From contig CAWCTR010000014.1 in NCBI GenBank assembly GCA_963798485.1, forward strand, positions 256,001 to 320,000: a stretch of DNA of 64,000 bases, given 5' to 3'. The DNA is from an uncultured delta proteobacterium (GTDB lineage: Bacteria > Desulfobacterota > Desulfomonilia > UBA1062). Positions 34,406 through 64,000 of the stretch are shown here, piece after piece. The notes below the pieces were generated by a model. The model did not search any database. It had not been told where the DNA came from and saw only the letters and a program-made list of their open reading frames with translations. Every line of letters begins with the position of its first letter. Within the stretch, counting starts at the first letter, position 1. The position numbers and the translations under genes are program-made.

Positions 34406-34446
34406 CAGCTTAGGTCTCTCTTCTTTTATAAAGTAAGGGTACTTTC

Positions 34447-41714: not shown

Positions 41715-42812
41715 ATGCAACAGAACAGAAAGATCATATTATCTCTCCTGATCGGCCTTGTCTTCTCATGTGCTGCCATCTATATATCTTTTAAGAATGT
41801 CCCCCTTGTACAGCTCCTGGGCTACATGAAGACCATAAACATTTGGTGGATCATTCCCTCTACACTCATAGCACTTTCCACGTACCTAGTGAGGGGGTTA
41901 AGGTGGAAAATTATCTTGAAACCGATCAAGAATATCGGCTTCTGGCATGCGTTTCACCCGGTCGTCATCGCATTCACTATCAACTGTCTCCTTCCAGGTC
42001 GAGTGGGTGAGCTTGCCAGGCCGGCCATCCTTTATAAGAGGGATAAGGTCGAGTTTTCCAAGGTTCTTGCAACGGTGGGTGTGGAGCGGATCTTTGATAT
42101 TGTAACCCTTCTGTGTATTTTTATCTTCATCATGAGCAACATTCAAATAGACCCATCCCTAAGTCTTACATTCAACGGCTACCAGATAAACCGGAAGACG
42201 CTCCTCGACATAAGGGCAAAGATGATTCTGGCTGGTATTATCTTGTTGTGTCTGATCTTCCTGTTCATGCTGCCCGTCACCAGACGGGCAATTAGCCGTT
42301 TCATTTCATTTCTACCGGGATTGCTCTTCTTCGCAACACCTCATTTCAGACAGAGTATGACCAAGCAGTTAAACACACGATCCCATGCTGTCCTCGATAA
42401 TCTCGCCCTGGGTTTTGAAGTCCTCAAGGATCCCTACAAGATACTTGCCTGCCTCCTGCTCTCAGCCGGTGTATGGCTGCTCACATTCTGCTCATTCTAT
42501 GTCTTGGCCCTTGGTTGTAAGGGGGTGAACATCACCTTTTTCCAGACGGCTGCAGCAGTGATCATCACGTGCTTTTTCATTATGCTGCCATCAGTGCCCG
42601 GTTATTGGGGCATATGGGAAATCGGGGGCATCTATGGCCTGATGATCTTCCAGGTCCCGAAGATAGAGGCTGCAGGATTGACGCTTACTTATCATTTTTT
42701 CTCGATTATCCCCCTCATACTTGTAGGATTATTGTCTTCATGGTTGACGGGAGTGAACGTAATGCAGGCTGGATTACATTCACAAGAGAGGATAACTGAA
42801 GAAGATATTTGA
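41715..42812 (+). CDS. Flippase-like membrane protein (UPF0104/LPG-synthase TM domain)
   Basis: RGLRWK, NCLLPGRVGELAR, VERIFD, PSVPGYWGIWE. Confidence 0.85.
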   Translation: MQQNRKIILSLLIGLVFSCAAIYISFKNVPLVQLLGYMKTINIWWIIPSTLIALSTYLVRGLRWKIILKPIKNIGFWHAFHPVVIAFTINCLLPGRVGELARPAILYKRDKVEFSKVLATVGVERIFDIVTLLCIFIFIMSNIQIDPSLSLTFNGYQINRKTLLDIRAKMILAGIILLCLIFLFMLPVTRRAISRFISFLPGLLFFATPHFRQSMTKQLNTRSHAVLDNLALGFEVLKDPYKILACLLLSAGVWLLTFCSFYVLALGCKGVNITFFQTAAAVIITCFFIMLPSVPGYWGIWEIGGIYGLMIFQVPKIEAAGLTLTYHFFSIIPLILVGLLSSWLTGVNVMQAGLHSQERITEEDI

Positions 42813-42834
42813 TAAATACTATATTCCGAGTCCG

Positions 42835-45036
42835 TCAGCCGTTGTTTCTTTTTATTAAGTTCTTATAAAATTGCGTACTTCTCAGATTATCAAGATCCTT
42901 ATCTTTCTGTATCAGTGCCCAATTCTTGAACCCTTTATCTATTGATTTAGTTAACCATTCAATAGACTCATCTACCTTTTTCTCTTTGGCATATATGCAT
43001 GCAATATTATAATACCCATCTGGATTACCCGGCTGAAGCCTGATCAGTTTCTGTAACATATCCAGAGCCTTTGCATTATCACCGTGATAGGAATACAATA
43101 CTGAGAGTTTCTTTAATACGTCGGTATTATCAGGTTCCTTTGACCTTTTCTGTTCAAGCAGTGCGACATCTTGATCTATCTTTCCTGATAAATTTGATGC
43201 TGCCGTTAAATAATTCCGAGCCTCGATGGAGTCAGGGGCAATTTTCAAGGCCTCCTTAAAATGAGAAACGGCATCATTTACCTTTCCCTGATTCATAAGA
43301 ATAACCCCAAGGGCACAATGGGATTCTGCATCATTGGGGTGAAGATTCAAGGCCGATGTGAAATACTCTAAGGCTTTATTCATCTCACCCCTTTTTGCCG
43401 ATATAATGCCAAGATTATAATATGCCTCAGCATATTTTGGATCGAGAGTGATCACATAAGAAAATTGTTTGATGGCTCCATCCAGATCCCCTTTGGCAGC
43501 ATAAACAGTTCCCAGCTCAAATTTTGCTTTTGTGTCTTTGGGATTGTAGCGTACTTCTTCAGAATAATAGTGAACTGCTTTATCTTGCAGTCCCAATTTG
43601 TTATAGAGATGCCCAAGCCCATCCAATGCTACAACATCGTTAGCATGTATTCTTAGCGCCTCTTGGAAATGATGGATTGCCATCTCTGCTTTTCCCAGGT
43701 TTGTATAAGCTACTGCGAGATTGACATGAGCAACATAATTATCAGGATTGAGGGCAACACAATGTGAAAAGAGAGTGAGATCATCCTTCCAGTATCCGAT
43801 CTGGAACCAGGTCCGTAGTGCAAATACGATCAGCACGACGGCGGCGGCAGCCGCCATTATATCCCTTTTACGATTAACCCGGGCCAGCAGATCAGGGACC
43901 CCCCAGGCAACAATGATGAATAGTCCTATGTACGGGACATATGCCCATCGCTCACCGATTGCCGGCCAGAGACCTGCCTGTATGATTCCCAGCACCGGAA
44001 CGAGCGTTCCGAGAAACCAGAGCCAGCCTATGATGAAATAAGGATATTTCCTGTATTTAAGCAGCGCCGTGGTTGTAATCAATAGAAGAACGGCTATCGA
44101 TCCAACTACCTCCCACATGGGGATTGCATCGGGAAACGGGTAGAATATGGAAAGGTCTTTCGGCCAGGCCATCTTTCCCATGTACATGAGGTATGAGACA
44201 ATGGCGTTCTTGATCTTGAGATCCATTGGAGAAAGATCCGAGGCCATGATGGTATGGGAGAACTTGAGAGAGAGCATGGTGGCATAGAAAAAAACAGAAG
44301 AAAGAATCGTCAGGGGGATCTTCTCAAGGACCAGTTTGAGGAGATCACGATAAAAAGATGACCATTTTGCCTTATCCTCACTCCACAAAGGGAAAGTTAT
44401 CCGGCCCAAAGGCCAGTAGTCGAGAAGCAACAGAACAAACGGCAGGGTCATCAGCATGGGTTTGGCAAGAGAACCCAGGCAGAATGCCCCGATGATGAGC
44501 AGGTACATACCGATATTCGGCTTCTTCGTGTAAAAAAAGTACGTGATCATGGTGAGCATCCAGAAAACGGTGCTCAGAAGATTTTTCCGCTCTGCAATCC
44601 ATGCCACCGAATCCACATTGACCGGGTGAAAGGCAAACAAGGAGGCGACAAACGCGCTCTTCCAGACCGATCCGGTCATCCATCTCAATGCCAGGAAAAG
44701 CAGCATGGCACTGATGGCATGAAGGAGCACATTGCTCATGTGATGCATCCCGGCATTCAGCCCGAAGAGCTGGTAATCCACCATGTGGGAAATCCAGGCA
44801 AGAGGATGCCAGTTGGTCACTTCTCCTTGTTTGGAAAGGCTGAAGGCCCAGCTGATACTTTCCAGAGACAACCCCTTGTGCACCTGCCGGTTGTTCACAA
44901 CATACAACGGATCATCCAATGAGATGAAATTGTAGTTGTGCATTTGGAAATATATCAGGAATATCGAAAAGAAGAGAAATACAAGGACAAGTATATCTCT
45001 GTGCTGCTCCAGAAACCCTTTATTCAGATCTCGCAT
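42835..45036 (-). CDS. TMTC-like GT-C glycosyltransferase with TPR repeats (paralog 1)
   Basis: FISLDD.LYV, WHPL.WISH, HP.NVDSVAWIAERK, KPML.TLP, ERWAYVP; TPRs; YYNIACIYA...KD.DL tail. Confidence 0.85.
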   Translation of the reverse strand: MRDLNKGFLEQHRDILVLVFLFFSIFLIYFQMHNYNFISLDDPLYVVNNRQVHKGLSLESISWAFSLSKQGEVTNWHPLAWISHMVDYQLFGLNAGMHHMSNVLLHAISAMLLFLALRWMTGSVWKSAFVASLFAFHPVNVDSVAWIAERKNLLSTVFWMLTMITYFFYTKKPNIGMYLLIIGAFCLGSLAKPMLMTLPFVLLLLDYWPLGRITFPLWSEDKAKWSSFYRDLLKLVLEKIPLTILSSVFFYATMLSLKFSHTIMASDLSPMDLKIKNAIVSYLMYMGKMAWPKDLSIFYPFPDAIPMWEVVGSIAVLLLITTTALLKYRKYPYFIIGWLWFLGTLVPVLGIIQAGLWPAIGERWAYVPYIGLFIIVAWGVPDLLARVNRKRDIMAAAAAVVLIVFALRTWFQIGYWKDDLTLFSHCVALNPDNYVAHVNLAVAYTNLGKAEMAIHHFQEALRIHANDVVALDGLGHLYNKLGLQDKAVHYYSEEVRYNPKDTKAKFELGTVYAAKGDLDGAIKQFSYVITLDPKYAEAYYNLGIISAKRGEMNKALEYFTSALNLHPNDAESHCALGVILMNQGKVNDAVSHFKEALKIAPDSIEARNYLTAASNLSGKIDQDVALLEQKRSKEPDNTDVLKKLSVLYSYHGDNAKALDMLQKLIRLQPGNPDGYYNIACIYAKEKKVDESIEWLTKSIDKGFKNWALIQKDKDLDNLRSTQFYKNLIKRNNG

Positions 45037-45200
45037 ACTATGCTGCCCAGTCTTTGATTAATCCCAAATGTATTTGATTACGTATTAATAAATACTATGC
45101 CATAATCTCACCGCACATACTATCATAGTGACTACCATTGATATATTATATTTCTTCTCTACTACAACTATCCAATAGTGGATGGCGTATATATGAATAG

Positions 45201-45443
45201 GCAGTATATATAGGAGATAACCTGAGACTCAAAATGCTGGTTGAAAGAGTTTATCTCGTATCAAAGAGGTTCTTCGGCATCCCCACCTTCTTCAACTACG
45301 CGATCGCTGACGGTCTGTATAAGCTCCTCTTTCCAGATAAAACCGGAATCAACAAGGAGGCAAAAGTAATAAAACCCGAGTTCCAGTTATGCTTCAGCTT
45401 TCTGGAGTGAGAGCGGATAGAAATAAAACTCAGGAAACTCCAG
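45201..45443 (+). mobile_element. IS4-like transposase C-terminal remnant plus probable end
   Basis: Hand translation AVYIGDNLRLKMLVERVYLVSKRFFGIPTFFNYAIADGL...QLCFSFLE*, resembling DDE transposase C-termini; no start; family recalled, not searched. Confidence 0.5.
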
Positions 45444-45450
45444 TTACCTT

Positions 45451-46096
45451 CAATCTTTTTACAATTTGTATCTGACAAGGGCATAATCAACTTTCACTTT
45501 ACCTAAGTTCAATAAACTATAAACCTCGCCGATTCCTGGTGCGAAATAAGAGATACCCTCGAAATGTTGCGATCCATTACTCGCCTGGAAGGATACTTTG
45601 AGACATTTTACATACTTTTTGTCATTCAATTCGACAGTTTCTATCTTCTCTGCTTTAAATTGTGTCTGGACGTCTGATGTCTTTGTCGTCCAGATATTCC
45701 CTACCTTCATCGGAAATGGCGTCGTTAAATATTCTTGCCTCGTTTTGTCATCTATTTTGTAGATACCCTCTTTTGCCCTTCTGTTGTAACTGACATGTGT
45801 CCCAGCACCTGGTACCCCTTTTGTAAGAGTGATTTGCTTATAGTATGTCTTCCCATTGATGGTCTCTTCACCACCAATTTGGATTAGCATTCCTCCCGTC
45901 TGTACCCCTTCAGGGGCTGAATACCTTATACCGTATGCCCATTGTGCTCCATTAGAGCCTTTTGGGTAGTAGATATCACCCTGGGGTTGTCCCTGTGGTT
46001 GTTTAGAGCATGCAGACAGAGTCAATAAGGTTATAATGATCATATAAACAAGTCTTCGCTGCATGTTTCTCTCCTTTTATCAGTTTATCAAAAGTA
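45451..46096. repeat. Direct repeat copy 1 (~645 bp)
   Basis: Near-identical to 60194-60839 (offset 14,743 bp). Confidence 0.95.
45459..46064 (-). CDS. Beta-rich lipoprotein, copy 1
   Basis: Lipobox LSAC; YFAPGIGEV motif; protein identical to 60202..60807. Confidence 0.85.
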   Translation of the reverse strand: MQRRLVYMIIITLLTLSACSKQPQGQPQGDIYYPKGSNGAQWAYGIRYSAPEGVQTGGMLIQIGGEETINGKTYYKQITLTKGVPGAGTHVSYNRRAKEGIYKIDDKTRQEYLTTPFPMKVGNIWTTKTSDVQTQFKAEKIETVELNDKKYVKCLKVSFQASNGSQHFEGISYFAPGIGEVYSLLNLGKVKVDYALVRYKL

Positions 46097-46210
46097 GTAA
46101 AGTTATCATATACCATAAATATTTCTTACCCTTTTTACAAGAGAGATTATTCTCGGACGCTTACGGAGAAATACTCTACGTAAGAAGGGGGGCAATCAAC
46201 ATGATTCAAT

Positions 46211-46978
46211 CTATTTTTGGAGAAATATCTTTGCAAACATCCCTAGTTTCAGGTTCATCCGTCCGAGTATAGATTCTATATATTCCCAAAATCTATAGGT
46301 GATACCCGGCATGATGCTCCGGAGAGATATACCGCCCGAGAGAAGATAGACAAAGGGCTTTTCCACTTTGATGTTTTTGATGGAAAGCCCCGGATATTTC
46401 AATTCAAAAAGCCTTCTGTCGCGTTCAAACACTATCCACGGCAAGGCAGAGTTCGCCCCGGAGAGTGGGCCTGATATGGGAAATGACCACTGCTTAGCTT
46501 TTATATCGACAGGCTCATGATGAATGTGAGTATATACCAACGACGACCACGGGGTTATCCACGGCTCCACCATCAGGATCGTGCCGCCAGCACGGAGGCA
46601 TCTTACCGCTTCGATCAAGAAAATATCAACATCCGGGATATGGTGGAATACATCGACCATTATAATAGATTTTAGAGAGTCGTTTTTGAAGGGCATGAAG
46701 CATCCGTTCATAACCATTTTCACGAATGGGCAGAAGAACACTTCCGTTGTTATAACCTCAGGAATTAATTCATCGAGAAATCCCGCTCCTGATCCTAGTT
46801 CCAGAATACTTCCGTCTCCGGAAGGAATGTTTGCTGCAATCCATGTATACCAATCCTTATAGATTCTTCTCAGAAACGGCTTTTGCTGGATGATCTGCTT
46901 GCGCAGATGTGTTGTTCGCGGATCATCAATATCGATGTTCCTGGTTAGGGGGTGTTTAAGAAAATTAAGCATATCCAC
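46211..46978 (-). CDS. Class I SAM-dependent methyltransferase
   Basis: ILELGSGAGF motif I, DVFHHIP, GG.ILMVEP. Confidence 0.88.
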   Translation of the reverse strand: MDMLNFLKHPLTRNIDIDDPRTTHLRKQIIQQKPFLRRIYKDWYTWIAANIPSGDGSILELGSGAGFLDELIPEVITTEVFFCPFVKMVMNGCFMPFKNDSLKSIIMVDVFHHIPDVDIFLIEAVRCLRAGGTILMVEPWITPWSSLVYTHIHHEPVDIKAKQWSFPISGPLSGANSALPWIVFERDRRLFELKYPGLSIKNIKVEKPFVYLLSGGISLRSIMPGITYRFWEYIESILGRMNLKLGMFAKIFLQK

Positions 46979-48435
46979 TAAATGAATTTAATTTTTTCCA
47001 TGGCATATACTGTCATCTTAAGGAGCAGCCAACCATGTTTCCATCTTTCGATGTTTGTTGTGCCGTATCTCCGCTCGGCATAGCGGATGGGCATCTCCAC
47101 GATCTTGAGATTCTGCCTGACTGCACCAAAAAGAAGGTCAAAGTCGCCGAAGGGATCGAAGTCGCCAAAATAGGCCCTGTTCGTCGCTATCCTATCATAA
47201 TTTTGCCTGCTTAAAACCTTTGTCCCGCACAGTGTGTCTTTGATGGGCTGGCCCAGAAGCCAGGAGAAGGCAAGAGAGAAAAACTTATTACCCAGAAGGT
47301 TAAGGTAGCGCATGGCCTCTTTTTCCATAGGATAGATGAGTCTCACTCCATTGATAAACTCTCCATCGCCTGACATAATCGCATCATAGAACCTGGTAAG
47401 ATCTTCCGGAGGAACAGTCATATCGGCATCAAGTATCATGAAGATATCGCCTGAGGCATTCTGGTAACCGAGACGTACTGCGTCGCCTTTGCCCTTACCG
47501 GTCTGTCTGAAAAGCTTACATCTCTTCTCGGGATGGGCAGAAATTGTCCTCTCGATAACCTCGTAGGTGTTGTCGCTGGAGTTCCCCTCAACGAAAATCA
47601 GCTCTGTGCCCCGGCCCATCTCGGGAATACGCCGCAGGATTTCATCTATATTCCCTGCCTCGTTACGGGCCGGAATCACAACGGAAACTATCGGTTTTGC
47701 CTTCTTGTTTTCCTCTGTAGGTTTCCTGCGTGCAATCACAAAGTTTGTAAGAGCCAAATGAGATAGAGGCCACAGCTTCACTGCATATTTATTCAGAAAG
47801 CTCGACAAGATAGGGGTTGAAAGAGGCCATAGGATCTCCTGCCAGGTCCTGATTACCTCAAAGCCTGCCAGATTGAGCATGTTTTTGACATCCTCAATGG
47901 TGAGCCAGTTCTGGGATAATAATGGCGTAGAAAGTCCAAACAATTGGGCAAAGAAAAGGGGTAGTTCCCACAGGCGGCTATACATATTCAAAATGATACG
48001 CGTCCGAGGAATGGATACATTTCTGAGACCCTCGAAGACATTTTGAACATCCCAAAGATCATTTGCAAGATCTGATAGAATGATGACATCAAATGTCTCG
48101 TCAAGCGCAAGCTCGTGTGCATCCGCTTGGATAAAACGCAGTTCCGGAAACTTCTGCATCGCCCTCTTGACCATCTCGCCTGAAAGGTCGACACCGACAC
48201 CGACAGAAGGTTTGAGCTTGGCAAGAAGCTCTCCAGTCCCGCAACCTATCTCAAGAATCTTCTGGCCGGGAGACACGATGTGCGCGTACAACTGACCCAG
48301 CCTCTCGTGATAATACGTACCGAGCGATTTCCAGGAATCCTTTTCCCGAGCGATCTTGTCCCAGTGAATCTGCCGTGCTTCCCGATATTCCCGGGCAGTT
48401 GCCAACTTTGCAGAAACCCCACGATCCGTCTTCAT
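46978..48435 (-). CDS. SAM-methyltransferase domain fused to GT2 (polyprenol-phosphate-sugar synthase-like)
   Basis: LEIGCGTG; IPARNEAGNI, GKGDAVRLG, ILDAD (DXD), DTLCGTK, EMPIRY; probable start ATG 48435. Confidence 0.88.
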   Translation of the reverse strand: MKTDRGVSAKLATAREYREARQIHWDKIAREKDSWKSLGTYYHERLGQLYAHIVSPGQKILEIGCGTGELLAKLKPSVGVGVDLSGEMVKRAMQKFPELRFIQADAHELALDETFDVIILSDLANDLWDVQNVFEGLRNVSIPRTRIILNMYSRLWELPLFFAQLFGLSTPLLSQNWLTIEDVKNMLNLAGFEVIRTWQEILWPLSTPILSSFLNKYAVKLWPLSHLALTNFVIARRKPTEENKKAKPIVSVVIPARNEAGNIDEILRRIPEMGRGTELIFVEGNSSDNTYEVIERTISAHPEKRCKLFRQTGKGKGDAVRLGYQNASGDIFMILDADMTVPPEDLTRFYDAIMSGDGEFINGVRLIYPMEKEAMRYLNLLGNKFFSLAFSWLLGQPIKDTLCGTKVLSRQNYDRIATNRAYFGDFDPFGDFDLLFGAVRQNLKIVEMPIRYAERRYGTTNIERWKHGWLLLKMTVYAMEKIKFI

Positions 48436-48448
48436 AATTCTTGTCCCA

Positions 48449-49390
48449 TTATGCTGTTTTATTTTGCAGATACCACTCGTATGTGTTTGCAATACCTTCT
48501 TTAAGTCCGATCTTTGCCTTCCACCCCAGTTCCTCAATTCTCCTAATGTCGAGTAGCTTCTGAGGAGTTCCGTCAGGTTTGGAAAGGTCCCATTGGATCT
48601 CACCGGTATAACCGACGATGTCTCTCACCAATTCTGCAAGTCTCTTGATAGTTAAATCCATGCCGGTTCCTATATTCACGAATTCACCCACTGTAACGGC
48701 TTCATACCTGTTCATAAGAAATACCAATGCTTCGGCAAGGTCATCCACGTGAAGGAATTCGCGTCTCGGGCTGCCGGTGCCCCAGATCATTACATTATGC
48801 CCGCGGTTCTCCTTGGCTTCATGGAAACGTCTGATAAGGGCCGGCAAAACATGGGATGTCACAAGGTCAAAATTGTCGCCGGGGCCATAGAGATTTGTGG
48901 GCATCACTGAAATAAAATTCGTCCCATACTGGGCATTATAGTATCTGCATAATTTTATGGCCGCTATCTTTGCAATGGCATATGGCTCGTTGGTCGGCTC
49001 CAATGCTCCGGTAAGCAGGGAATGTTCACTGAGAGGCTGCGGTGCTAATTTCGGATAGATGCATGATGAACCCAAGTTGAGCAGCTTTTTAACTCCATGT
49101 TTGTAACTTGAATGAATAACATTGGCGGCTATCATTATGTTGTCATAGATGAATTCTGCAGGGTACGTGCTGTTGGCGAGTATCCCGCCTACTCTGGCTG
49201 CACAAAGAAATACGTATTCGGGTTTCTCTTGTGAAAAAAATACCTCAACATCTCGCTGGCTGATAAGGTCAATGTCCGGATAAGAACGGGTTATAAGGTT
49301 ATCATACCCCTCGCTCTCGAGTTTCCGTTTTACTGCAGAACCCACTAAACCAGTATGCCCGGCAATGAAAATCTTATTGTTTTTATTCAT
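48449..49390 (-). CDS. fcl: GDP-L-fucose synthase
   Basis: [54 protein letters not shown]. Confidence 0.95.
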
Positions 49391-50501
49391 GGCGATTCAT
49401 TACGGTAAATCCGCTGTTTTTACAAAGGACATCCATCTGGGTTTCCTTAATATCATGTTTTACCATCTCGGCTATCATTTCTTCAAAGCTGATCTCCGGT
49501 TTCCATCCTAGTTTATTTCTCGCCTTTGACGGATCGCCCAACAACGTTTCCACTTCTGTAGGCCTGAAGTAGTGTGGGTCAACCTGCACGACCACATCAG
49601 CGGGTTTGACATGTTCACTTCCTTCAAAGGGTTCTGCCGAACTTACCACGCCCTTCTCCTTCAGTCCAGTTCCCTGCCAACTCAACTCGATACCGACGTT
49701 AGAAAAAGCCAGGGTGCAGAGCTGTCGTACAGAATATTGCTTTCCAGTTGCGATTACATAATCTTCCGGCTGCTCCTGTTGGAGCATAAGCCACTGAGCC
49801 TTCACGAAATCTTTTGCGTGGCCCCAGTCACGCAATGCGTCCAAATTACCGACATACAGCTTCTCTTGCAGACCAAGGGCGATCCTGCTGGCTGCCCTGG
49901 TTACCTTGCGGGTGACAAAGGTCTCACCACGGATGGGTGATTCGTGGTTGAACAGGATGCCATTGCAGGCATACATACCATAGGCCTCGCGGTAGTTCAC
50001 CGTAATCCAAAACGCATAGAGCTTTGCCACCCCATAAGGGCTCCTGGGATAAAATGGGGTTTCCTCATCCTGAGGAATTTTCTGTACCTTGCCAAAGAGC
50101 TCGCTGGTGGATGCCTGGTAAAACCTCACCCTCTTTTCCATCCCTAGTATGCGTAGAGCTTCCAGTATTCTGAGTGTTCCCAAGGCGTCTGCCTGGGCCG
50201 TGTACTCAGGTGTTTCAAAAGATACCTGCACATGGCTTTGAGCCCCAAGGTTATATATCTCATCCGGCTCAACATCCTGTATGATTCGGATGATATTCGT
50301 TGAGTCCGTAAGATCTCCATAGTGCATGAGGAACCGCACATCTTTTTCATGCGGGTCCTGATACAAATGATCAACACGGTAGGTATTGAAGCTCGATGAT
50401 CTCCGTTTGATGCCATGTACATAATACCCTTTGCCTAAAAGAAATTCTGCAAGATATGCCCCATCCTGGCCGGTAATCCCGGTTATCAAGGCCTTTTTCA
50501 T
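49383..50501 (-). CDS. gmd: GDP-mannose 4,6-dehydratase
   Basis: [48 protein letters not shown]. Confidence 0.96.
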
Positions 50502-50701
50502 CTCAACCCCCAACTCTTATCTATTAGCGCGATACTATCTATTCGGAAGTACAGCTATTATCACTTAACTGCATATTTGTCATCCACATGCCATAGAGAT
50601 GAAATGTCATGTTGATTTTTCTCGATTCATCCCGATTCCCCACCTAAAAAGTACACATAACTCTAAGCATCAAAATTCCTATATCAAGGTAACACAATGA
50701 T

Positions 50702-52696: not shown

Positions 52697-52890
52697 TGCT
52701 TCTCCGCACCTTTTTTTCAATAACATAACTTTGATGAGTAATAAGTGAAAACCAGTGAATACTCAACAATAAGATAGAATACATAAGTGATAGTACGGTC
52801 TTATGATTTTAAGCACAAATTCTTTCGCTTCAATCTATGGAAATATATACATGCCTTATTTGTGTAGATATTTCTAATTAGATAAATATA

Positions 52891-55384: not shown

Positions 55385-57625
55385 ATGTTTTTGGCAACTA
55401 TAACCCAATTCTCTACATCTTGGAGAAATCTGCAAGAAACATCAAGACGTTTATTTCTCTTGCCTTTAATTTGTACAATCCTCGCAGCTTTAACATTTAT
55501 GGTCTATTGGCAAGTAAGGGGCTTTGGCAGTATCAACTTGGATGATGGCTTATATGTATTTGGAAACCATTTCGTCAGACAGGGTATTAATCTAGCCGGC
55601 ATTAAGTGGGCCTTTACTTCTGTATACGCAGACAATTGGCACCCGTTAACTTGGATCTCTCATATGATAGATATTCAGCTTTTTGGGATCGATCCAGGAA
55701 TGCACCACATCACCAACGTTATTTTTCATATATTAAATACCGTATTACTTTTCATCTTACTAGAAAGGATGACTGGAGCATTATGGAAGAGTGCTATGGT
55801 AGCAGCTCTCTTTGCTCTACATCCTCTTCATGTAGAATCAGTTGCATGGATATCAGAACGTAAAGACTTGTTGAGTACGTTTTTTTGGATAGTCACCACA
55901 ATGGGGTATTTCTGGTATGTGAAGAATAGGAGCATATCGAGGTACCTCATTATAATCCTCTTTTATATCCTTGGACTCATGTCCAAACCCATGTTGGTTA
56001 CCTTGCCGTTTGTTCTTCTGCTCCTCGACTTTTGGCCATTAAATCGGCTTAATATTATTGAGATCGAAGATAATAATTCAACTAAAAATGTCAATAAAAC
56101 AATTGGATCTGATGGCATGAGAAGGGTTTTAATATTATTAATAATAGAGAAAATACCGCTCATCTTATGTGCGCTGATATCATGCGGCATTACCATATAT
56201 GCACAGAAAAGTTGGGGTGCTGTGAGCTCCCTATATAGATTCCCCATCGAGACGAGATTAGCAAATGCTCTTACTTCTTACATAGCTTATCTCTGGAAAA
56301 TGGTTTGGCCCGTAAACCTAGCTATATTCTATCCTTATCCGGATTTCTTTAATCCCCTTAAGGTTGTTCTTTGCGCCCTATTTCTTTTAATCATATCTGC
56401 CTTAGCTATGTATAATGCAAGGAAACTCCCTTATCTCTTTGTGGGGTGGTTATGGTATATCGGGACTTTAGTGCCCGTTATTGGAATTGTACAGGTGGGA
56501 GGCCAGTCAATGGCGGATAGGTATTCTTATATCCCGCTTATAGGATGTTTTTTGATGATTGTATGGGGTGTTGCTGGTTACTTCAATAATTGGCACCATG
56601 GGAAGATAATAAATGGATTCATAGCACTTTCCGTTCTCTTTATCTTAGTCCTTATTATTTGGAGACAGATTGGATATTGGAAAAATACAGAAACACTCAT
56701 TAGACATACAATTGCTGTAACAGAAAATAATTATATGGCTCATCATCAACTTGGATGTATCTTGTTCAGTAAAGGTGATCTGGATGGCGCTATCAAGGAG
56801 TATCGAGTTGCTCTGCAGGCCAAACAAATCGCAGAAGCTTATAATGGTCTTGGAAATGCGTTCGGTGCTAAAAATGATATAGGTAATGCTATTGACTGTT
56901 ATTTAAAAGGGTTGCAGATTAATCCATACGATATTAGTATTCTTTATAATCTAGGATATCTTCTGGCATCAATGGGTAAAACGGTTGAGGCCACTCAATA
57001 TTTCAACAAGTTGTTCAAGATTAACCCATACAACATTGAAGCCCACAATGCATTTGGTAATGCTTTACTTCGGAATGGGAAAGTTAATGAGGCGATCAAT
57101 CAATTTAATGAAACGCTCCGTCTGAATCAACAAGACCAGGAGGCACAGAGAGGAATAAAAGAAGCTAAAGTAATCCAGAAAAACTCTGAATCCTTAGTAG
57201 CCAAAATAAATGTATTGATTAAGACAGATCCTCATAATCCTGCACTGTATACAAAATTGGGCGACATCTACTATCAATTAGGTGAATATTATGGGGCTAT
57301 TGTTCAATATAAGAAAGCACTCTCAGTTCAACCGAAATTTATAAGTGCCTTAGAGAGGCTGGTCAATATTCACGTTGACAGACAAGAGTACGGGGAAGCC
57401 CTAGATATACTCCAGAACATAAGACAATTACAACCTGATAAACCTGATGGATATTATAATATTGCGTGTATCTATGCAAAACAGGAGAAGATCAATGAAT
57501 CTATTTACTGGTTGAAACAGTCTGTAGATAAAGGTTTCCACGATTGGGATCTTTTAAGAAAAGATCCTGACTTGGCAATCATCAGAAACACATCTTATGT
57601 TAATGAATTAATGAAGAATCATTAA
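55385..57625 (+). CDS. TMTC-like GT-C glycosyltransferase with TPR repeats (paralog 4)
   Basis: INLDD, NWHPLTWISH, ESVAWISERK, QSMADRYSYIP; TPRs; YYNIAC tail. Confidence 0.85.
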   Translation: MFLATITQFSTSWRNLQETSRRLFLLPLICTILAALTFMVYWQVRGFGSINLDDGLYVFGNHFVRQGINLAGIKWAFTSVYADNWHPLTWISHMIDIQLFGIDPGMHHITNVIFHILNTVLLFILLERMTGALWKSAMVAALFALHPLHVESVAWISERKDLLSTFFWIVTTMGYFWYVKNRSISRYLIIILFYILGLMSKPMLVTLPFVLLLLDFWPLNRLNIIEIEDNNSTKNVNKTIGSDGMRRVLILLIIEKIPLILCALISCGITIYAQKSWGAVSSLYRFPIETRLANALTSYIAYLWKMVWPVNLAIFYPYPDFFNPLKVVLCALFLLIISALAMYNARKLPYLFVGWLWYIGTLVPVIGIVQVGGQSMADRYSYIPLIGCFLMIVWGVAGYFNNWHHGKIINGFIALSVLFILVLIIWRQIGYWKNTETLIRHTIAVTENNYMAHHQLGCILFSKGDLDGAIKEYRVALQAKQIAEAYNGLGNAFGAKNDIGNAIDCYLKGLQINPYDISILYNLGYLLASMGKTVEATQYFNKLFKINPYNIEAHNAFGNALLRNGKVNEAINQFNETLRLNQQDQEAQRGIKEAKVIQKNSESLVAKINVLIKTDPHNPALYTKLGDIYYQLGEYYGAIVQYKKALSVQPKFISALERLVNIHVDRQEYGEALDILQNIRQLQPDKPDGYYNIACIYAKQEKINESIYWLKQSVDKGFHDWDLLRKDPDLAIIRNTSYVNELMKNH

Positions 57626-57629
57626 GATA

Positions 57630-57920: not shown

Positions 57921-58023
57921 TTTTCAAGAACCTCTATGATTTTTTGATTGACTGTGATTAACTTTTCTATTTTAAATATAATTTAGTTTTGAACATTATT
58001 GAATTATTTTTGTTGAGGTAAAT

Positions 58024-59697
58024 GTGCCACCAGCAAATAAATCGATAAAAAGTTATATTTTAATACCTATTCTATTTTTTATTACTTTAGCAATGAGCAG
58101 TTTATCTATAAAATATAACAACCAATTAGGGATGCTGGGCGGTCTTTCAGAAGAATATTATGTTATCGGCCTACATTTTTTTCAAACTGGGTCACTGTGT
58201 TCTAATTATGAATACCCCATTTCGACTTCAGTTTTTAGACCCCCTGGGTACTCGTTTTTTATTGGTACAGTTATAAAAGTATGGGGTGAAATAACCCATA
58301 ATGATAGTGCATTACGGCATAAGAATACTGAAATGGATCCCAAAGCAGTAAATCAATCAGCGGACGCTATCTTTTTTGCGCAGGCCCTGTTATTATCACT
58401 ATCCACCGTTGTTCTTTATATTTGGCTTTCAACTTATATATCTTTAAGTAACTCATTTATAATATCTCTCATCTTTGGTTGTAATCCGTATATGATAATA
58501 ATGACTGGCCTCATGCATTATGAAATATTGCATATATTTCTGATAATTATTTCAACCTACAGCCTTATTTATATAATTGATAAACATAGTGATAGCAGAT
58601 GGAAAATGATATTACCTGGAATATTATGGGGGCTTGCAACCCTTACAAGACCTACCACACTTATATTACCAGCATTTGTTTTTCTATTATTTTGTATAAT
58701 ATTCAAAAAATCAAAGAAAAAGATAGCTACACTAAGTTTGTTATTCATACTTGGTATGAGTATTGCGATCATGCCATACACCGTAAGAAACTATATCATC
58801 ACAAAAGAATTTATCCCAGTTAACGCACAGGGTGGATTAGCATTATATGCCGGAACAGTCACAAAATTTGAAAGAATCCCCAATCATTATAGATGGTGGA
58901 CTGTTATGTTTAAATATGTATGTCCGATATATTTTAGGGAGATTCATGATCCTCTGGATGATCCTCGATTGTGCAAAAGTAAATACCAAGAGCATGCATT
59001 GCAACTTGATAGTGTATTCAAAAAAGAAGCCATAAATAACATTATTAATAATCCCCAAATATATTTTTATAACACTTTAATTAATTTTGTTACTATTAAC
59101 CTTGATATAAATTCTGTCTTTATTAAACTATTTCAAGCAAAACAAGACACTTATAAAGATAAGGATATAGAATATAATTGGAGTATTCCTGGAAATCCTC
59201 AAACATTCTATTCATCTGACGGGCAGACTGTATTTGGGTTTTTCATATATACACTTGAGTTATTAAGTTTATTTGGAATAATTATCTTTATAAAGAAGTC
59301 ATATAATACTTATCATTCTTCCAGGAATCACATTAAATCTGAGATATCTGGCTTAAATACTCCTATGACAAGGAAAATGAGAAAAGAAATGATACGGGAA
59401 ATGGCTAATCAAGAACCTGAAAACACTTCTAAAGAATTGTCAGAATCGTTTTGGTTAGAAAATACATGGTTTCTAGTTTCAATTATGATATATTTAACCA
59501 TTTGTATAGCTCACTCTATAACCTACATTGACTTAATGCATTATTACAATAAGGTTCCATTTTTATTTATATTTACTGGTTATTTCCTCAATGAGATGGA
59601 TAAATATCAGTTAACCAGCGAAATTAAATTATCAAGTATATTTTCTATGTCTTTACTAATGTATGGAATATTATTAATCTTAATAATAATTCTTTAA
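58024..59697 (+). CDS. ArnT/PMT-like GT-C membrane glycosyltransferase (very AT-rich gene)
   Basis: EEYY acidic loop, FRPPGY, GLATLTRP, PYTVRNY, GLALYAG; multiple TMs. Confidence 0.75.
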   Translation: MPPANKSIKSYILIPILFFITLAMSSLSIKYNNQLGMLGGLSEEYYVIGLHFFQTGSLCSNYEYPISTSVFRPPGYSFFIGTVIKVWGEITHNDSALRHKNTEMDPKAVNQSADAIFFAQALLLSLSTVVLYIWLSTYISLSNSFIISLIFGCNPYMIIMTGLMHYEILHIFLIIISTYSLIYIIDKHSDSRWKMILPGILWGLATLTRPTTLILPAFVFLLFCIIFKKSKKKIATLSLLFILGMSIAIMPYTVRNYIITKEFIPVNAQGGLALYAGTVTKFERIPNHYRWWTVMFKYVCPIYFREIHDPLDDPRLCKSKYQEHALQLDSVFKKEAINNIINNPQIYFYNTLINFVTINLDINSVFIKLFQAKQDTYKDKDIEYNWSIPGNPQTFYSSDGQTVFGFFIYTLELLSLFGIIIFIKKSYNTYHSSRNHIKSEISGLNTPMTRKMRKEMIREMANQEPENTSKELSESFWLENTWFLVSIMIYLTICIAHSITYIDLMHYYNKVPFLFIFTGYFLNEMDKYQLTSEIKLSSIFSMSLLMYGILLILIIIL

Positions 59698-59903
59698 AAA
59701 TATGGTCTAAGATTCTAAAAAGGGTATCCATTGTTCAATAGCCGGATGGCTCACTATATTACTACTTTTCATTATAATGTTCCCCTACCGTGATCTTCCC
59801 GATTATCATTGGTACAGTCATTAGGGGATCACTATAATTATTCCAATTCTCAAAAATATAATATTACGAAACCATTTTCCTTAAAGGTGATTTTGCGATA
59901 ATT

Positions 59904-60109
59904 GGTCACTAAAGCGTACCTGGACTCATGCAGAGCATAGATTTTCAGTTTAAGGAATTCTTTATCCCTGTAGCCATAAGCCTGTTTTTGAAGCGTTTTG
60001 ATTTTGTGTTGTTTGTACCCTCCAGAGGGCCGGTCGATATGGGGTAATCATAATAAGCTAATATCCCTCGGCGATGTATGAGAAGAGTGTTTGCAAAGTG
60101 AATAAGCTT
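59904..60109 (-). mobile_element. ISL3 family transposase C-terminal remnant (frameshifted)
   Basis: Hand translation HFANTLLIHRRGILAYYDYPISTGPLEGTNN / IKTLQKQAYGYRDKEFLKLKIYALHESRYALV. Confidence 0.8.
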
Positions 60110-60193
60110 GTAACTATTAGGTTATTAAGCCTACTAACACTAATCTCTTATATAATAGTATCAACGTAATCATAAGTTTATTAAAATTCGTAA

Positions 60194-60839
60194 CAATCTT
60201 TTTACAATTTGTATCTGACAAGGGCATAATCAACTTTCACTTTACCTAAGTTCAATAAACTATAAACCTCGCCGATTCCTGGTGCGAAATAAGAGATACC
60301 CTCGAAATGTTGCGATCCATTACTCGCCTGGAAGGATACTTTGAGACATTTTACATACTTTTTGTCATTCAATTCGACAGTTTCTATCTTCTCTGCTTTA
60401 AATTGTGTCTGGACGTCTGATGTCTTTGTCGTCCAGATATTCCCTACCTTCATCGGAAATGGCGTCGTTAAATATTCTTGCCTCGTTTTGTCATCTATTT
60501 TGTAGATACCCTCTTTTGCCCTTCTGTTGTAACTGACATGTGTCCCAGCACCTGGTACCCCTTTTGTAAGAGTGATTTGCTTATAGTATGTCTTCCCATT
60601 GATGGTCTCTTCACCACCAATTTGGATTAGCATTCCTCCCGTCTGTACCCCTTCAGGGGCTGAATACCTTATACCGTATGCCCATTGTGCTCCATTAGAG
60701 CCTTTTGGGTAGTAGATATCACCCTGGGGTTGTCCCTGTGGTTGTTTAGAGCATGCAGACAGAGTCAATAAGGTTATAATGATCATATAAACAAGTCTTC
60801 GCTGCATGTTTCTCTCCTTTTATCAATTTATCAAAAGTA
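60194..60839. repeat. Direct repeat copy 2 (~645 bp)
   Basis: Near-identical to 45451-46096. Confidence 0.95.
60202..60807 (-). CDS. Beta-rich lipoprotein, copy 2
   Basis: Identical protein to 45459..46064. Confidence 0.85.
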   Translation of the reverse strand: MQRRLVYMIIITLLTLSACSKQPQGQPQGDIYYPKGSNGAQWAYGIRYSAPEGVQTGGMLIQIGGEETINGKTYYKQITLTKGVPGAGTHVSYNRRAKEGIYKIDDKTRQEYLTTPFPMKVGNIWTTKTSDVQTQFKAEKIETVELNDKKYVKCLKVSFQASNGSQHFEGISYFAPGIGEVYSLLNLGKVKVDYALVRYKL

Positions 60840-61171
60840 TTAAATAGTTGATTCATATATCTAGAATAAAGTCAAGTCTCCATTTTTCTAAATTAGTCTT
60901 AAAAAGGCCTATTTTTTAATAATGTCATCATTCCTAAAAGGTATCAGTTAATGATTACAAATTGTTACTGGTTAGTAACATAGGTTAGGAGATCATATAA
61001 AATGGAAGAGAAACAGCCACTAATCAGCCTGGCCATAAACTATAATTTGCCCATAAGCGAGGCAAGGGACCACGATGTTCAATGTCATAAACATCATTAA
61101 GGCGACCCAGTGATAACAAGATCTATATTTTTCTGACGTGATGAATCATCCCACAACTTGATGCTGTTAAT

Positions 61172-61561
61172 TCAATCGGCCGGGATTGTAAACTCAAGTA
61201 CAGCAGGTGTTCCGCCTTTTTGAGACATAGTATTTTCTTTTAAAGAATCAATGTAGATAGTGGCATCAAATATATCAGTACTATCACCGAGAAGTGTTGC
61301 AGAAAGGTACAAATAAGTTCCGGTTTTTGCATAAAATGAATATGTCCAAGATTTGTTCGTCACATTTACACTTGGAAGTTCCACGGTTTTGCCATCCTCG
61401 TCGATATAGGTAATAGAGACAGGATTGCTGGAATATGTGCTTACTTCATACTGTACATAATGCATATCACTAGACTGGGTACTGCCTCCGCCACTTCCCC
61501 CACACCCGGTCAAGGTTATGATGAGAATATACACTAAGATTATTTTACTAAGGTTCTCCAT
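61172..61561 (-). CDS. Small Ser/Thr-rich lipoprotein with probable Ig-like beta-sandwich
   Basis: Lipobox LTGC, GGSGGGS linker, alternating beta pattern (YEVS, ITYID, WTYSF, LYLSA). Confidence 0.7.
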   Translation of the reverse strand: MENLSKIILVYILIITLTGCGGSGGGSTQSSDMHYVQYEVSTYSSNPVSITYIDEDGKTVELPSVNVTNKSWTYSFYAKTGTYLYLSATLLGDSTDIFDATIYIDSLKENTMSQKGGTPAVLEFTIPAD

Positions 61562-61660
61562 AAATGACCTTTTGGTTATTTAATTGTCTCACAAGGGAAC
61601 CTGTAAGACAAGATTATTGATTGTACAGGGGGAAAACAACCTTCCACTTCCTTCCTATTA

Positions 61661-61677
61661 AAGGCATTGCCTTTGCT
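61661..61677 (+). promoter_or_regulatory. Putative sigma-54 (-24/-12) promoter
   Basis: aaGGcattgcctttGCt with GG-N10-GC spacing and TTGC, about 37 bp before ATG 61714. Confidence 0.45.
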
Positions 61678-61713
61678 GATGATAGGACTATAATAATACT
61701 GAGATAAAGAGTT

Positions 61714-62418
61714 ATGAAAAGCGCACTGCTGTTTTTTATTGTCTTTTTGCTCCCATTTTCCGCCTGGGCAATGACCCCTGTCTCTGATTCCGAGCTCTCA
61801 AATGTCACTGGTCAGGCAGGTGTAAGTATCAACCCCGATCTGACCATGGACATAAATATCGGCACAATAGCTTGGGGAGATTCTGATGGTCTTGGTTCAA
61901 ACAACATCTGGGGAGAGAAAACTAATGGTGGTTATTTCGGAGTAACGAATTTCAACATCACCAATCTCCAGATCAAGCTTCGTGATAATGACAGTTATAA
62001 CGGATACAATTCTCTTATGATGAAGCCGATTACTATCGACGTAGCAACTGTTGGATCTTCTGCCCTTGATGTGTACACGACACCCAGCGCAGGTCCAGCT
62101 CCTATCGGCGGTATTCTGACAGAATCCATTCCCCCCAACACGACATTTGTCCGCATCGGTCTAGGTGCTCTCAAGATCAGCACGGACCAGATGCAATTTG
62201 CTGTTGCACTAGGACCCTATGTAGATACCAGTACCGGTGATACTCCGGTTTTAAAACAGGTTCTAGGAGTTGCTACTTTGGGTCCAATGGATGTGTACGT
62301 TAACCCACAAAGTTATGTTGATGTCTACTCACCACATGCCAGTCATGGGGTTGTCTTTGATGTGAAGGTGACTCTTGACCATGTTAGTATCCCTTATATG
62401 TCATGGGGTGGACATTAA
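61714..62418 (+). CDS. DUF6160/FilA-like secreted beta-rich protein
   Basis: Signal peptide followed by AMTPVSDSELSNVTGQAGVSI signature, WGDSDG motif. Confidence 0.75.
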   Translation: MKSALLFFIVFLLPFSAWAMTPVSDSELSNVTGQAGVSINPDLTMDINIGTIAWGDSDGLGSNNIWGEKTNGGYFGVTNFNITNLQIKLRDNDSYNGYNSLMMKPITIDVATVGSSALDVYTTPSAGPAPIGGILTESIPPNTTFVRIGLGALKISTDQMQFAVALGPYVDTSTGDTPVLKQVLGVATLGPMDVYVNPQSYVDVYSPHASHGVVFDVKVTLDHVSIPYMSWGGH

Positions 62419-62491
62419 GTATAAGATGGATACCTTTAATTATCCGATAGCAGAGATAACTCCCGAGACTGTCGCCCATTAAAAGGTTCTG

Positions 62492-62944
62492 TCAATGAGA
62501 AAATGATGCTTTCAAAGCCACCTTGTCCTGAATAATGGCTTGGAGAGTCTTCCTGGAGCAATCAGGGGCAATCTGGTTATACACCTTCCCCTGCCTTTTC
62601 AGAACTCCAAAAACCAGGATCTTGCCCCCGGCTCCCCTTCCTCGTATCCCTCGAACTCTCCTCGCTCCAAAGTATGCTTCATCCACCTCAATCTCACCAG
62701 AAAAGGGCGACTGACTTTCACAGAATTCCGCCAGTCTCTTTCTCGGCGCTTTGAGAATATGGTTGACGCTGTTCCTGCTCACACCAGTAAGTTCTGCAAC
62801 TCTTGTGGCCTCAAGATCCATGGCAAAATACCTTATGATCTGCCTAAAATTCCTCTCACAAATGTGCGAACAATGACAATACTTGTTAACCCTGTTCATA
62901 AGCCAACTTATAGCACCTTTCATGTGCTAAAGTTATCATGAACC
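62492..62944 (-). mobile_element. Truncated IS1595 family element (transposase 62492..62923)
   Basis: HTH plus FSGEIEVDEAYFG..RGIRGRGAGGKILVFG.LKR; stops before the rest of the DDE domain; GGTTC-starting end near 62944. Confidence 0.8.
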
Positions 62945-63015
62945 TTGATTTATTGGGGAAAGAACTGATATTATAAATCTATATTAGGTTAATAAATTGT
63001 GATTTAGGAGATACT

Positions 63016-64000
63016 ATGGATGATAACACCTCATTTACAGAGATCGGCCAGCATGCTCAAAAAAAAGCAACATTATATCAATTGATAATCATCTGTGTGC
63101 TGCTTGCAGTTGTGATATTGACATTATATTGGCGTGTAAAGGGCTTCGATTTCATAGGTTGTGATGACCCAGTTTATGTTGCAGATAATTTGCATGTAAA
63201 AGACGGGCTATCGCTTGAAGGCTTAAAATGGGCTTTCCATCTAACAAGAGCAGGAGATGTAAGTTATTATCATCCATTAACCTGGCTTTCTCTCATGGTG
63301 GATTATGAGCTTTTTGGCCCTAAAGCAGGAATGTACCATCTGATTAATGTTCTTTATCATGTTCTGAACACAATATTACTTTTTATTGCATTACGGCTGT
63401 TCACAGGTTCCACATCGAAAAGCGCTTTTGTGTCAATGTTATTTGCAATTCATCCCATAAATGTTGAATCGGTAGCATGGATTGCAGAGAGAAAAAATCT
63501 CCTCAGTACTTTTTTTTGGATGCTGACATTACTTCTCTATTATTATTATTTTAAGAAACCATCTCTCGAAAGATATCTTATTGTATTTTTAATATTTATT
63601 CTTGGCCTCTTGTCTAAACCAATGCTCGTCACACTCCCCTTTGTATTACTACTTCTAGATTTTTGGCCAATGAATAGAATCCGTTTAGTTGGTGAAAATA
63701 TAACAGATATCTCTAAATCCATCCTAAATATGAATAACGCGAAATTGATAGTAGAGAAAGTGCCTTTGATAATACTTTCTGCTGTAATGATTGTATATAG
63801 TTCAAGGTCAATGTCAAATATTGGTTCATACATATCGATAAAAGCAGTTCCTATGAACCTCAGAATTAAAAATGCGATCGTATCATACATTCTCTATATC
63901 GAGAAAATGTTCTGGCCGGATAACCTGACCTTTTTTTATCGATTTCCTAATGAAGTACCACTGTGGGAGGTCGTGGGGGCCTTAATCTTTATCTTAATCA
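63016..64000 (+). CDS. TMTC-like GT-C glycosyltransferase (paralog 5, runs off window edge)
   Basis: Not in the ORF track; AGGAG + ATG 63016; FDFIGCDDPVYV, YHPLTWLS, HPINVESVAWIAERKNLLS, SKPMLVTLP. Confidence 0.88.
   Translation, partial: MDDNTSFTEIGQHAQKKATLYQLIIICVLLAVVILTLYWRVKGFDFIGCDDPVYVADNLHVKDGLSLEGLKWAFHLTRAGDVSYYHPLTWLSLMVDYELFGPKAGMYHLINVLYHVLNTILLFIALRLFTGSTSKSAFVSMLFAIHPINVESVAWIAERKNLLSTFFWMLTLLLYYYYFKKPSLERYLIVFLIFILGLLSKPMLVTLPFVLLLLDFWPMNRIRLVGENITDISKSILNMNNAKLIVEKVPLIILSAVMIVYSSRSMSNIGSYISIKAVPMNLRIKNAIVSYILYIEKMFWPDNLTFFYRFPNEVPLWEVVGALIFILI

Follow-up and report, generated by a model that had tools for sequence, protein, structure and literature searches.

A predicted lipid-linked (methyl)fucose-dependent glycosylation module with an array of tetratricopeptide-repeat-bearing GT-C transferases in an uncultured delta proteobacterium

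A stretch of 64,000 nucleotides from an uncultured delta proteobacterium (genome G000, contig CAWCTR010000014.1 or C14, positions 256001-320000; hereafter the window, from whose position 1 the coordinates below are counted unless a contig or locus is named) carries an array of genes for membrane proteins in which a glycosyltransferase domain of the C fold (GT-C) is followed by C-terminal tetratricopeptide repeats (TPRs), and this array of TPR-GT-C genes is interleaved with the genes of a nucleotide-sugar pathway. As judged from the encoded proteins and their relatives, and with moderate confidence, the locus is read here as a periplasmic glycosylation module that would depend on a lipid-linked (methyl)fucose and use many GT-C transferases guided by their TPRs, with exported proteins as the probable acceptors.

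The preliminary description of this DNA reported at least five such paralogs with an intact DD pair in the first loop, and the open reading frames (ORFs) and their translations agree with it in every start and motif: paralog A (42835..45036, minus strand, 733 aa, SLDD), paralog B (50702..52726, minus strand, 674 aa, NFDD), paralog C (52891..55170, plus strand, longest ORF 759 aa, NFDD), paralog D (55385..57625, plus strand, 746 aa, NLDD) and paralog E (63016..64000, plus strand, GCDD), the last of which is cut by the window end and reaches 947 aa in the genome. The DD loop lies about 10 residues past the first hydrophobic helix, and an alignment that spans the entire membrane domain shows the paralogs to be 37-50% identical to A and over 60 columns to be invariant. 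The C-terminal 240-310 residues of the four complete paralogs, C and D among them, give strong Pfam matches to TPRs, as had been described, and paralog E likewise bears a TPR region, of 513 residues, beyond the window. The count of five proved to be too low, because searches with the N-terminal membrane domain (N-domain) of paralog C and with a hidden Markov model of the TPR-GT-C family find 11 genes on the contig (10 intact and one split, C14:298,838-366,386, a span of 67.5 kb) and, on different contigs, six further genes that include a distant one (28% identity); the whole genome thus holds 17 genes and one fragment at a contig edge. Intact frames of 629-960 aa are found in 16 of the 17, and the broken copy (C14:329800-332120; L001:10797-13105) is divided into two ORFs, an N-part of 275 aa and a C-part of 476 aa. 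The DD pair is present in every copy of the genome, D41 and D42 being invariant in alignments of 97-100 rows, and most of the close copies also keep the WHPL, ERK(D/N), KPxxxT and (D/E)RxxY blocks.

Among 30 relatives searched at E≤1e-20, the distribution of the family is patchy: 10 of the 14 genomes of the same genus hold 1-8 matches and four hold none, three of these four being 92-98% complete, so that the 17 genes described here form the largest set among the searched genomes. A recent tandem burst was considered as the origin of the array and rejected, since the N-domain identities lie mostly at 40-60% and several old clades are shared with relatives. For paralog C, the stored call (P0002, 660 aa) begins about 100 residues into the ORF and thereby omits the first transmembrane (TM) helix and the DD loop; because homologues span the longer ORF (covering 99-100% of its residues 20-440), this public start is probably wrong.

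In predicted structures, the membrane domain of the paralogs is a GT-C fold, as the preliminary description had proposed. AlphaFold models of full-length paralog C and of the N-domain of paralog A have a predicted local distance difference test score (pLDDT) of 94.2 and 93.8, respectively, and the N-domain model is required to expose the fold, the full-length model of C retrieving TPR proteins only, namely superhelices of the OGT type. With the N-domain of A, the top 37 Foldseek rows are all GT-C enzymes or the GT-C-like PIGU, led by STT3, ArnT, PglB, AglB, Pmt4, DPY19 and ALG9 (probability 1.00 each). Similarly, the VIA comparison aligns 343 residues of this domain with yeast STT3 (8age_A) at Z 20.1 and a root-mean-square deviation of 4.8 Å, and returns Pmt2 (6p25_B) at Z 18.3, Pmt4 at Z 17.6 and ArnT (5f15) at Z 16.3; the VIA matches cover residues ~3-425 and reach Z≥8 for 54 chains, and no solved TMTC structure is among the structural matches. 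At the level of sequence, 18 of 34 N-domains of the family match Pfam PMT_2, the best of them at E 2.2e-10, with 29.2 bits for paralog E and sub-threshold scores for B and C; the 34 match no further Pfam family. A sequence search of the Protein Data Bank (PDB) with a single N-domain gave 0 matches, and a 34-row N-domain profile gave chance aquaporin matches only, at E about 1; therefore, the kinship to solved GT-C enzymes is seen through the fold alone. The models read as 11 long helices with the TPR hairpins straight after, from about residue 418, and these 11 TM helices, together with the basic N-terminus, would place both the DD loop and the TPRs on the periplasmic side.

The sugar donor would be supplied by a minus-strand operon of which paralog A is the final gene, and the nucleotide-sugar operon, the glycosyltransferase family 2 (GT2) gene, the flippase-like gene, the further GT-C gene and the secreted proteins that the preliminary description saw interleaved with the paralogs are all present as it described them (E-values of family matches in brackets here and below). 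Synthesis would begin with GDP-mannose 4,6-dehydratase, encoded by gmd (49383..50513, upstream of which paralog B lies on the same strand; TIGR01472, 3e-176, 585.6 bits against a cut-off of 415), and GDP-L-fucose synthase, encoded by fcl (48449..49390, minus strand; NF047922, 5.5e-147, 489.1 bits, slightly short of the curated cut-off of 500), whose strong family matches point to GDP-L-fucose as their product. The next gene encodes a methyltransferase-GT2 fusion (46978..48603, minus strand, longest ORF 541 aa; Glycos_transf_2 5.8e-21, Methyltransf_25 3.7e-14), a predicted polyprenyl-phosphate sugar synthase, which would place the sugar on polyprenyl phosphate at the cytoplasmic face. This assignment follows its similarity to AglJ (5.6e-31), Dol-P-hexose transferase (2.4e-16), ArnC (1.5e-11) and PgfS (6.5e-10) in NCBIfam, and, among solved proteins, to the dolichyl-phosphate-mannose (Dol-P-Man) synthase of P. 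furiosus (5mlz, 5.7e-16) and to three ArnC entries at ~1e-10 (best 1.2e-10). Relatives of the fusion align from about residue 49-71 of the 541-aa ORF, and its true start is probably later than that of the longest ORF. The sugar may also be O-methylated, either by the methyltransferase part of the fusion or by the adjoining S-adenosylmethionine (SAM)-dependent methyltransferase (46211..46978, minus strand, 255 aa; Methyltransf_11 5.8e-07, Methyltransf_23 2.3e-06).

Transport to the periplasmic face is provisionally assigned to an MprF-TM-like, flippase-like membrane protein (41715..42812, plus strand, 365 aa; PF03706 LPG_synthase_TM 8e-43, TIGR00374 2.3e-22) with several hydrophobic segments, whose gene is divergent from the donor operon; no GtrA-type flippase gene was found among the ORFs scanned. 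Once there, the lipid-linked sugar would be transferred by paralog A, and probably by its clade-mate E, to an acceptor held by the periplasmic TPR domain, while the other paralogs would be enzymes of the same kind, at least one clade of which appears to pair with a different, short GT2.

Linkage of the donor genes to the TPR-GT-C family is supported by the family-level relatives of this genome, seven of which encode full-length orthologues of the methyltransferase-GT2. In all seven loci, gmd, fcl and the methyltransferase-GT2 gene are consecutive, and in six a TPR-GT-C gene begins 70-1,530 bp downstream of the last; in the seventh, the next TPR-GT-C gene is 8.8 kb away, with a GT-C gene like gene F of the window (described below) in between. 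An orthologue of the flippase-like gene lies divergent beside gmd, or within 2 kb, in five of the seven, and the SAM-methyltransferase has orthologues in two. In a maximum-likelihood tree of 28 N-domains, in which many deeper forks are unresolved and the midpoint root is set by the long branch C23, all six of the copies that lie downstream of a methyltransferase-GT2 fall into a single clade with A and E (support 85/88), and paralogs B, C and D stand outside it. Paralog B groups (98/92) with a relative's copy that follows a short GT2 of 259 aa, an AglJ/PpgS-like protein (4.4e-16 and 5.2e-12) whose gene in the present genome sits between two other copies. Because B-type copies go with the short GT2 and the A clade with the methyltransferase-GT2, at least two pairings of donor synthase and transferase seem to exist. 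The short GT2 gene of this genome (L001:13121-13900) is found directly upstream of the broken TPR-GT-C copy.

Beyond these relatives, the family is very large, as the N-domain alone matches 74,019 clusters (50% identity) at E≤1e-3 and 18,946 at E≤1e-30. A word-based search with the N-domain gave at least 8,000 matches, the best 120 of which are mostly unnamed or called 'tetratricopeptide repeat protein' and come from metagenome-assembled genomes of Desulfomonilia and other Thermodesulfobacteriota. Some members among the matches listed are annotated by JGI as 'protein O-mannosyl-transferase', the name that KEGG uses for its group of TMTC orthologues. In a scan of species genomes, members at 38-48% identity were found in Verrucomicrobiota, Planctomycetota, Acidobacteriota, Nitrospinota, Nitrospirota, Myxococcota, Gemmatimonadota, Chlorobiaceae and Hydrogenedentota, and in contigs labelled Saccharibacteria. 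Two to five copies within ~21 kb occur in 25 of 73 loci from other taxa, and paralog arrays are therefore a general habit of the family. When all 831 flanking ORFs of the 73 loci were clustered, the TPR-GT-C family itself accounted for 123 members, and the sole other recurrent neighbour was a GT2 family of 312 aa, with 16 members in 12 loci, which aligns end to end with the ArnC model (1.8e-64, below cut-off). Because it is the only recurrent neighbour, the general partner of the family is, by sequence comparison, a GT2 resembling undecaprenyl-phosphate (Und-P) sugar synthases, and the fucose operon is a lineage-specific version of this partnership. Orthologues of the short GT2 (57-72% identity) occur in six of the 73 loci; one locus with the label Candidatus Saccharibacteria (L052:3556-5270) has two GT2 genes beside its family member, an ArnC-like one and a homologue 72% identical to the short GT2, and could reflect horizontal transfer or a binning error.

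The multiplication of the transferases is most readily explained on the acceptor side. Against its 17 TPR-GT-C genes, the genome holds a single methyltransferase-GT2, a single short GT2 and two flippase-like genes, so that sharing of donors is unavoidable for most paralogs. Among 15 close paralogs of this genome, the median identity is 52.3% in the N-domain and 35.4% in the C-terminal part, and the N-domain is the more similar of the two in 92 of 105 pairs. Since donor synthases are few and divergence is faster in the TPR domains than in the catalytic ones, it is probably the acceptor rather than the donor that distinguishes most paralogs. By analogy with TfpW, TMTC, TMEM260 and PMT, the acceptors are most likely exported proteins, and the candidates near the array are fibre subunits of the FilA/DUF6160 type and the local lipoproteins.

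A gene for such a secreted, FilA/DUF6160-like fibre subunit with a signal peptide lies inside the window (61714..62418, plus strand; DUF6160 3.1e-13, pilus_FilA 2.7e-10, the latter below cut-off). It stops at 'SWG', whereas full-length relatives run 100-200 residues further to a conserved '...GSWVDIWAH', and 74 bp after it begins a transposase fragment of the insertion sequence (IS) family IS1595 (62492..62923, minus strand; NF033547 1.2e-18, below cut-off; DDE_Tnp_IS1595 7.9e-08); the gene looks to have been cut short by insertion. Just beyond the array, at about C14:336,900-343,200 (L001:17933-19612, L002:3-4181), lies a Fil-like set consisting of a FilD FadL-type barrel (8.8e-78), FilC (6.4e-27), a FilB C39 peptidase (9.6e-61) and FilA, all below cut-offs; the FilA/DUF6160 genes of the set number two to three, of which one seems to be split. 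In the subunits that they encode, a Sec signal precedes a conserved 'D-x-E-L-S-x-V-T-G-Q-A-G' block resembling a double-glycine leader. Four of the eight DUF6160 matches in the genome lie within 10 kb of a TPR-GT-C copy (C14:317714, C14:342489 and two at C22:21797-24048), and DUF6160 genes adjoin a TPR-GT-C or flippase-like gene in the relatives G005, G008 (twice), G011 and G012. A profile made from the DUF6160 alignment matched nothing in the PDB, and a search of open-access literature found no paper naming DUF6160 and, for Fil, only work on a FilF vaccine and on Acinetobacter Tol 5.

Several results weigh against a lipid-linked-fucose module acting on exported proteins. All named NCBIfam matches of the methyltransferase-GT2 score below their curated cut-offs, and no TM segment is found in it by hydropathy scan. 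The flippase-like protein has no solved relative by sequence, and to our knowledge the flipping of polyprenyl-phosphate sugars by PF03706/TIGR00374 proteins is not established. A search of open-access literature found no paper naming a polyprenyl-phosphate (lipid-linked) fucose donor. Moreover, the donor linkage that the preliminary description suggested is lineage-specific: it recurs in the seven family-level relatives that have the methyltransferase-GT2, and in other taxa methyltransferase-GT2 orthologues (61% identity) occur in two of the 73 loci and orthologues of gmd and fcl in none, the four gmd matches being at most 27% identical and belonging to other short-chain dehydrogenases/reductases; within the genus, four members (G006, G007, G009 and G010) hold TPR-GT-C genes and lack the methyltransferase-GT2. 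As for the acceptors, no exported protein family is conserved beside TPR-GT-C genes across the 73 loci, the relatives in which DUF6160 genes adjoin the array are kin rather than independent cases, and DUF6160 genes are also found in genomes without the TPR-GT-C family (G003 and G014). In addition, ArnT and the Gtr-type GT-C enzymes follow a like donor logic but act on lipid A or on glycans.

From these last points arises the best-surviving alternative, a possibility to be taken seriously although it is unlikely: the donor logic would be alike, but the acceptors would not be proteins; instead, the sugar would be added to lipid A or lipopolysaccharide (LPS) core, O-antigen, exopolysaccharide or some other glycan or lipid of the envelope, and the TPRs would dock on envelope assembly machinery. 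GT2, flippase and GT-C together form the layout of glycan-modifying three-component systems (PMC11127046 and general background), ArnT is among the structural matches, genes for rmlA and an HpnA-like sugar epimerase sit immediately upstream, and the lack of a conserved acceptor protein in the 73 loci fits this view as well. Conversely, the characterised TPR-bearing GT-C enzymes found in the literature, namely TfpW, TMTC and TMEM260, all act on proteins; the faster divergence of the TPR parts fits many macromolecular partners; and the best structural matches, STT3, Pmt2 and Pmt4, are protein glycosyltransferases, albeit with ArnT within 4 Z units of them.

The favoured module on exported proteins can also be stated in its most specific form, in which a (methyl-)L-fucose lipid donor would be flipped by the MprF-TM-type protein and all 17 TPR-GT-C enzymes would O-fucosylate exported proteins in the periplasm, with the TPRs of each paralog picking its clients, FilA/DUF6160 subunits included; this version is held only tentatively and is rather doubtful as a whole. 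Less probable still is that the methyltransferase-GT2 builds a methylated fucose glycan or glycolipid in the cytoplasm, the TPR-GT-C enzymes using some other donor and the linkage of the genes reflecting a shared envelope product. The lack of a TM segment in the fusion and its sub-threshold scores for every curated family would suit such a role, and its weaker matches include soluble GT2 enzymes such as glucosyl-3-phosphoglycerate synthase (1.4e-10); its best family and structure matches, however, are all polyprenyl-phosphate glycosyltransferases, a GT-C enzyme needs a lipid-linked donor for which the methyltransferase-GT2 is the sole candidate synthase in a tightly conserved operon, and across other phyla the recurrent neighbour is again an ArnC-like GT2.

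The surroundings of the array are island-like, with a GC content down to 31-40% at 52-64 kb and with mobile elements in and after the array, namely the IS1595 fragment, an IS3 transposase, two ISL3 transposases and an integrase. That many paralogs lack catalytic activity or are decaying in an island rich in mobile elements, leaving the array with little current function, is very improbable: the split copy, the IS fragments and transposases among the genes, the low GC content and the 0-8 matches per genus member against 17 here agree with it, but 16 of the 17 genes are intact, the DD pair and most other motif blocks are kept, and N-domain identities of 40-88% among paralogs indicate that most are old and maintained.

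The remaining genes of the region include gene F (58024..59697, plus strand, 557 aa), a GT-C protein without TPRs that matches PMT_2 (1.3e-06, 29.2 bits against a cut-off of 26.1) and the LA_3751/LA_3752 family of NCBIfam (8.3e-09); its DNA has 31% GC, and one relative has a homologue 49% identical to F at a distance of 3 kb from its gmd operon. Two identical genes for a lipoprotein of 201 aa (lipobox LTLSAC) are found at 45459..46064 and 60202..60807, both on the minus strand, one adjoining paralog A and the other adjoining gene F. The segments 45451-46100 and 60194-60843 share 100% nucleotide identity over ~650 bp, each exactly spanning one of the two genes, which suggests recent duplication or gene conversion; the protein has no homologue in the seven related loci. 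A smaller lipoprotein (61172..61561, minus strand, 129 aa, lipobox LTGC) contains 25% Ser+Thr, and neither lipoprotein matches a family in Pfam or NCBIfam. A promoter and terminator scan of 44-64 kb found 12 terminators against 14.6 expected from shuffles, hence no excess. At the end of the paralog-rich region stand two neighbouring ISL3-family transposase genes, each of 404 aa, followed by a phage-type integrase (L003:8824-11357). At 31060-35268 of the window, an EtfAB-like pair with ferredoxin domains adjoins a CCG/4Fe-4S protein; this electron-transfer module is unrelated to the array.

The interest of the locus lies in the fact that bacterial TPR-GT-C proteins are among the largest bacterial membrane-enzyme families without an assigned function, and that one clade of the family is here paired with a complete, conserved and unusual donor pathway, whereby its chemistry becomes testable. 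If the favoured module exists as proposed, it would provide a new lipid-linked donor, a function for PF03706-type 'flippase-like' proteins and a first handle on a huge family. Animal TMTC enzymes choose specific protein clients, and their loss causes disease; the O-fucosylation version, if true, would constitute a bacterial counterpart of this client-specific O-glycosylation with a different sugar.

Among known systems, the animal enzymes TMTC1-4 (GT105), which O-mannosylate cadherins in the endoplasmic reticulum, share with the paralogs an 11-TM GT-C domain, a DD pair in the first loop that faces the lumen or periplasm, and TPRs that, in the paralogs by prediction, lie on the same, non-cytoplasmic face. 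The relevant study (PMC7801869) lists the motifs M1-M7 of TMTC1-4, states that all human TMTCs match DUF1736 at E<1e-30 and mentions prokaryotic homologues. By eye against this published table, without an alignment and with positions counted from the DD pair, several motifs recur in the same order and at comparable spacing. The DD is kept; (Y)RPL of TMTC corresponds to (W)HPL at +35, so that SHKSYRP is kept in part; RxD and ERxxY are both kept, as R-K-D at ~+109 and as (D/E)R(Y/W)xY; KE(T/Q)xxT corresponds to K-P-M-L-V-T at ~+151, in which the metal-binding Glu is replaced by Pro; and the DW and PxxP motifs could not be placed. DUF1736 (PF08409), a segment that lies between TM7 and TM8 in TMTC, is matched by none of 6 N-domains at E≤10, by none of 34 at E≤1 and, in the whole genome, by none of the 13 candidates scored (E≤10). 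The TMTC donor is Dol-P-Man, whereas the linked genes here point to a GDP-fucose-derived donor, probably not Dol-P-Man. The label 'TMTC-type' of the preliminary description is thus apt for the architecture and some of the motifs, but not for membership of GT105; because the DUF1736 signature is not matched and the TMTC motifs are only partly kept, the paralogs are filed as bacterial GT-C (PMT_2 clan) and TPR enzymes akin to TfpW and TMTC, not shown to be GT105 members.

TMEM260 (GT117) is described (PMC10214176) as an 11-TM GT-C enzyme whose C-terminal region consists partly of TPRs and which has 'distant homologs in bacteria'; it uses a single catalytic Asp, in contrast to the DD of the paralogs. 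TMEM260 and the PMT/POMT enzymes (GT39) share with the paralogs the GT-C fold and the PMT_2 clan, with Pmt2 and Pmt4 ranking among the top structural matches; PMT, however, has a luminal MIR domain, where the paralogs have no MIR match in Pfam and carry TPRs instead. The three-component systems GtrA/GtrB/GtrC and ArnC/ArnE-F/ArnT encode a GT2, a flippase and a GT-C together, much as a GT2, a candidate flippase and a GT-C are encoded together here, and modify glycans or lipid A. Their flippases are of the GtrA or small multidrug-resistance-like type, whereas the candidate here is of the MprF-TM/TIGR00374 type; and, unlike in these systems, the GT2 here lacks TM helices and forms one protein with a methyltransferase, and the GT-C carries TPRs and is present 17-fold.

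By architecture, the closest characterised bacterial analogue is TfpW of P. aeruginosa, compared here by its description in a preprint (bioRxiv 10.1101/2020.04.19.049825): an inner-membrane protein of 646 aa, modelled on ArnT, with a cytoplasmic N-terminus, 11 predicted TM segments, a DDX motif in a loop on the periplasmic side and a periplasmic C-terminal TPR. It is needed for the O-arabinosylation of the group IV pilin, whose glycosylation is lost without it, and uses a polyprenyl-phosphate monosaccharide, the donor-synthesis genes being clustered in some species. The GT-C domain, the DDX/DD loop and the C-terminal TPRs, predicted to be periplasmic in the paralogs, are common to TfpW and the paralogs. 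As a bacterial GT-C and TPR protein glycosyltransferase already studied, TfpW also qualifies the preliminary statement that such proteins are largely uncharacterised, which is otherwise about right: the open-access literature on TMTC, GT-C and TPR proteins in bacteria contains no functional study of this family besides the TfpW preprint. The two systems differ in that the TfpW gene directly follows pilA, whereas no type IV pilin gene is detected by Pfam among the 16 ORFs at 41.7-64 kb; in that its sugar, again according to the preprint, is D-arabinofuranose, whereas a GDP-fucose-derived sugar is predicted here; and in that TfpW is single-copy, whereas the present genes form an array. In kind, then, both GT2-flippase-GT-C systems and TPR-bearing protein glycosyltransferases are known; what is new is the fucose/methyltransferase donor operon, the PF03706-type flippase candidate and the 17-fold multiplication of the transferase beside a Fil-type fibre locus.

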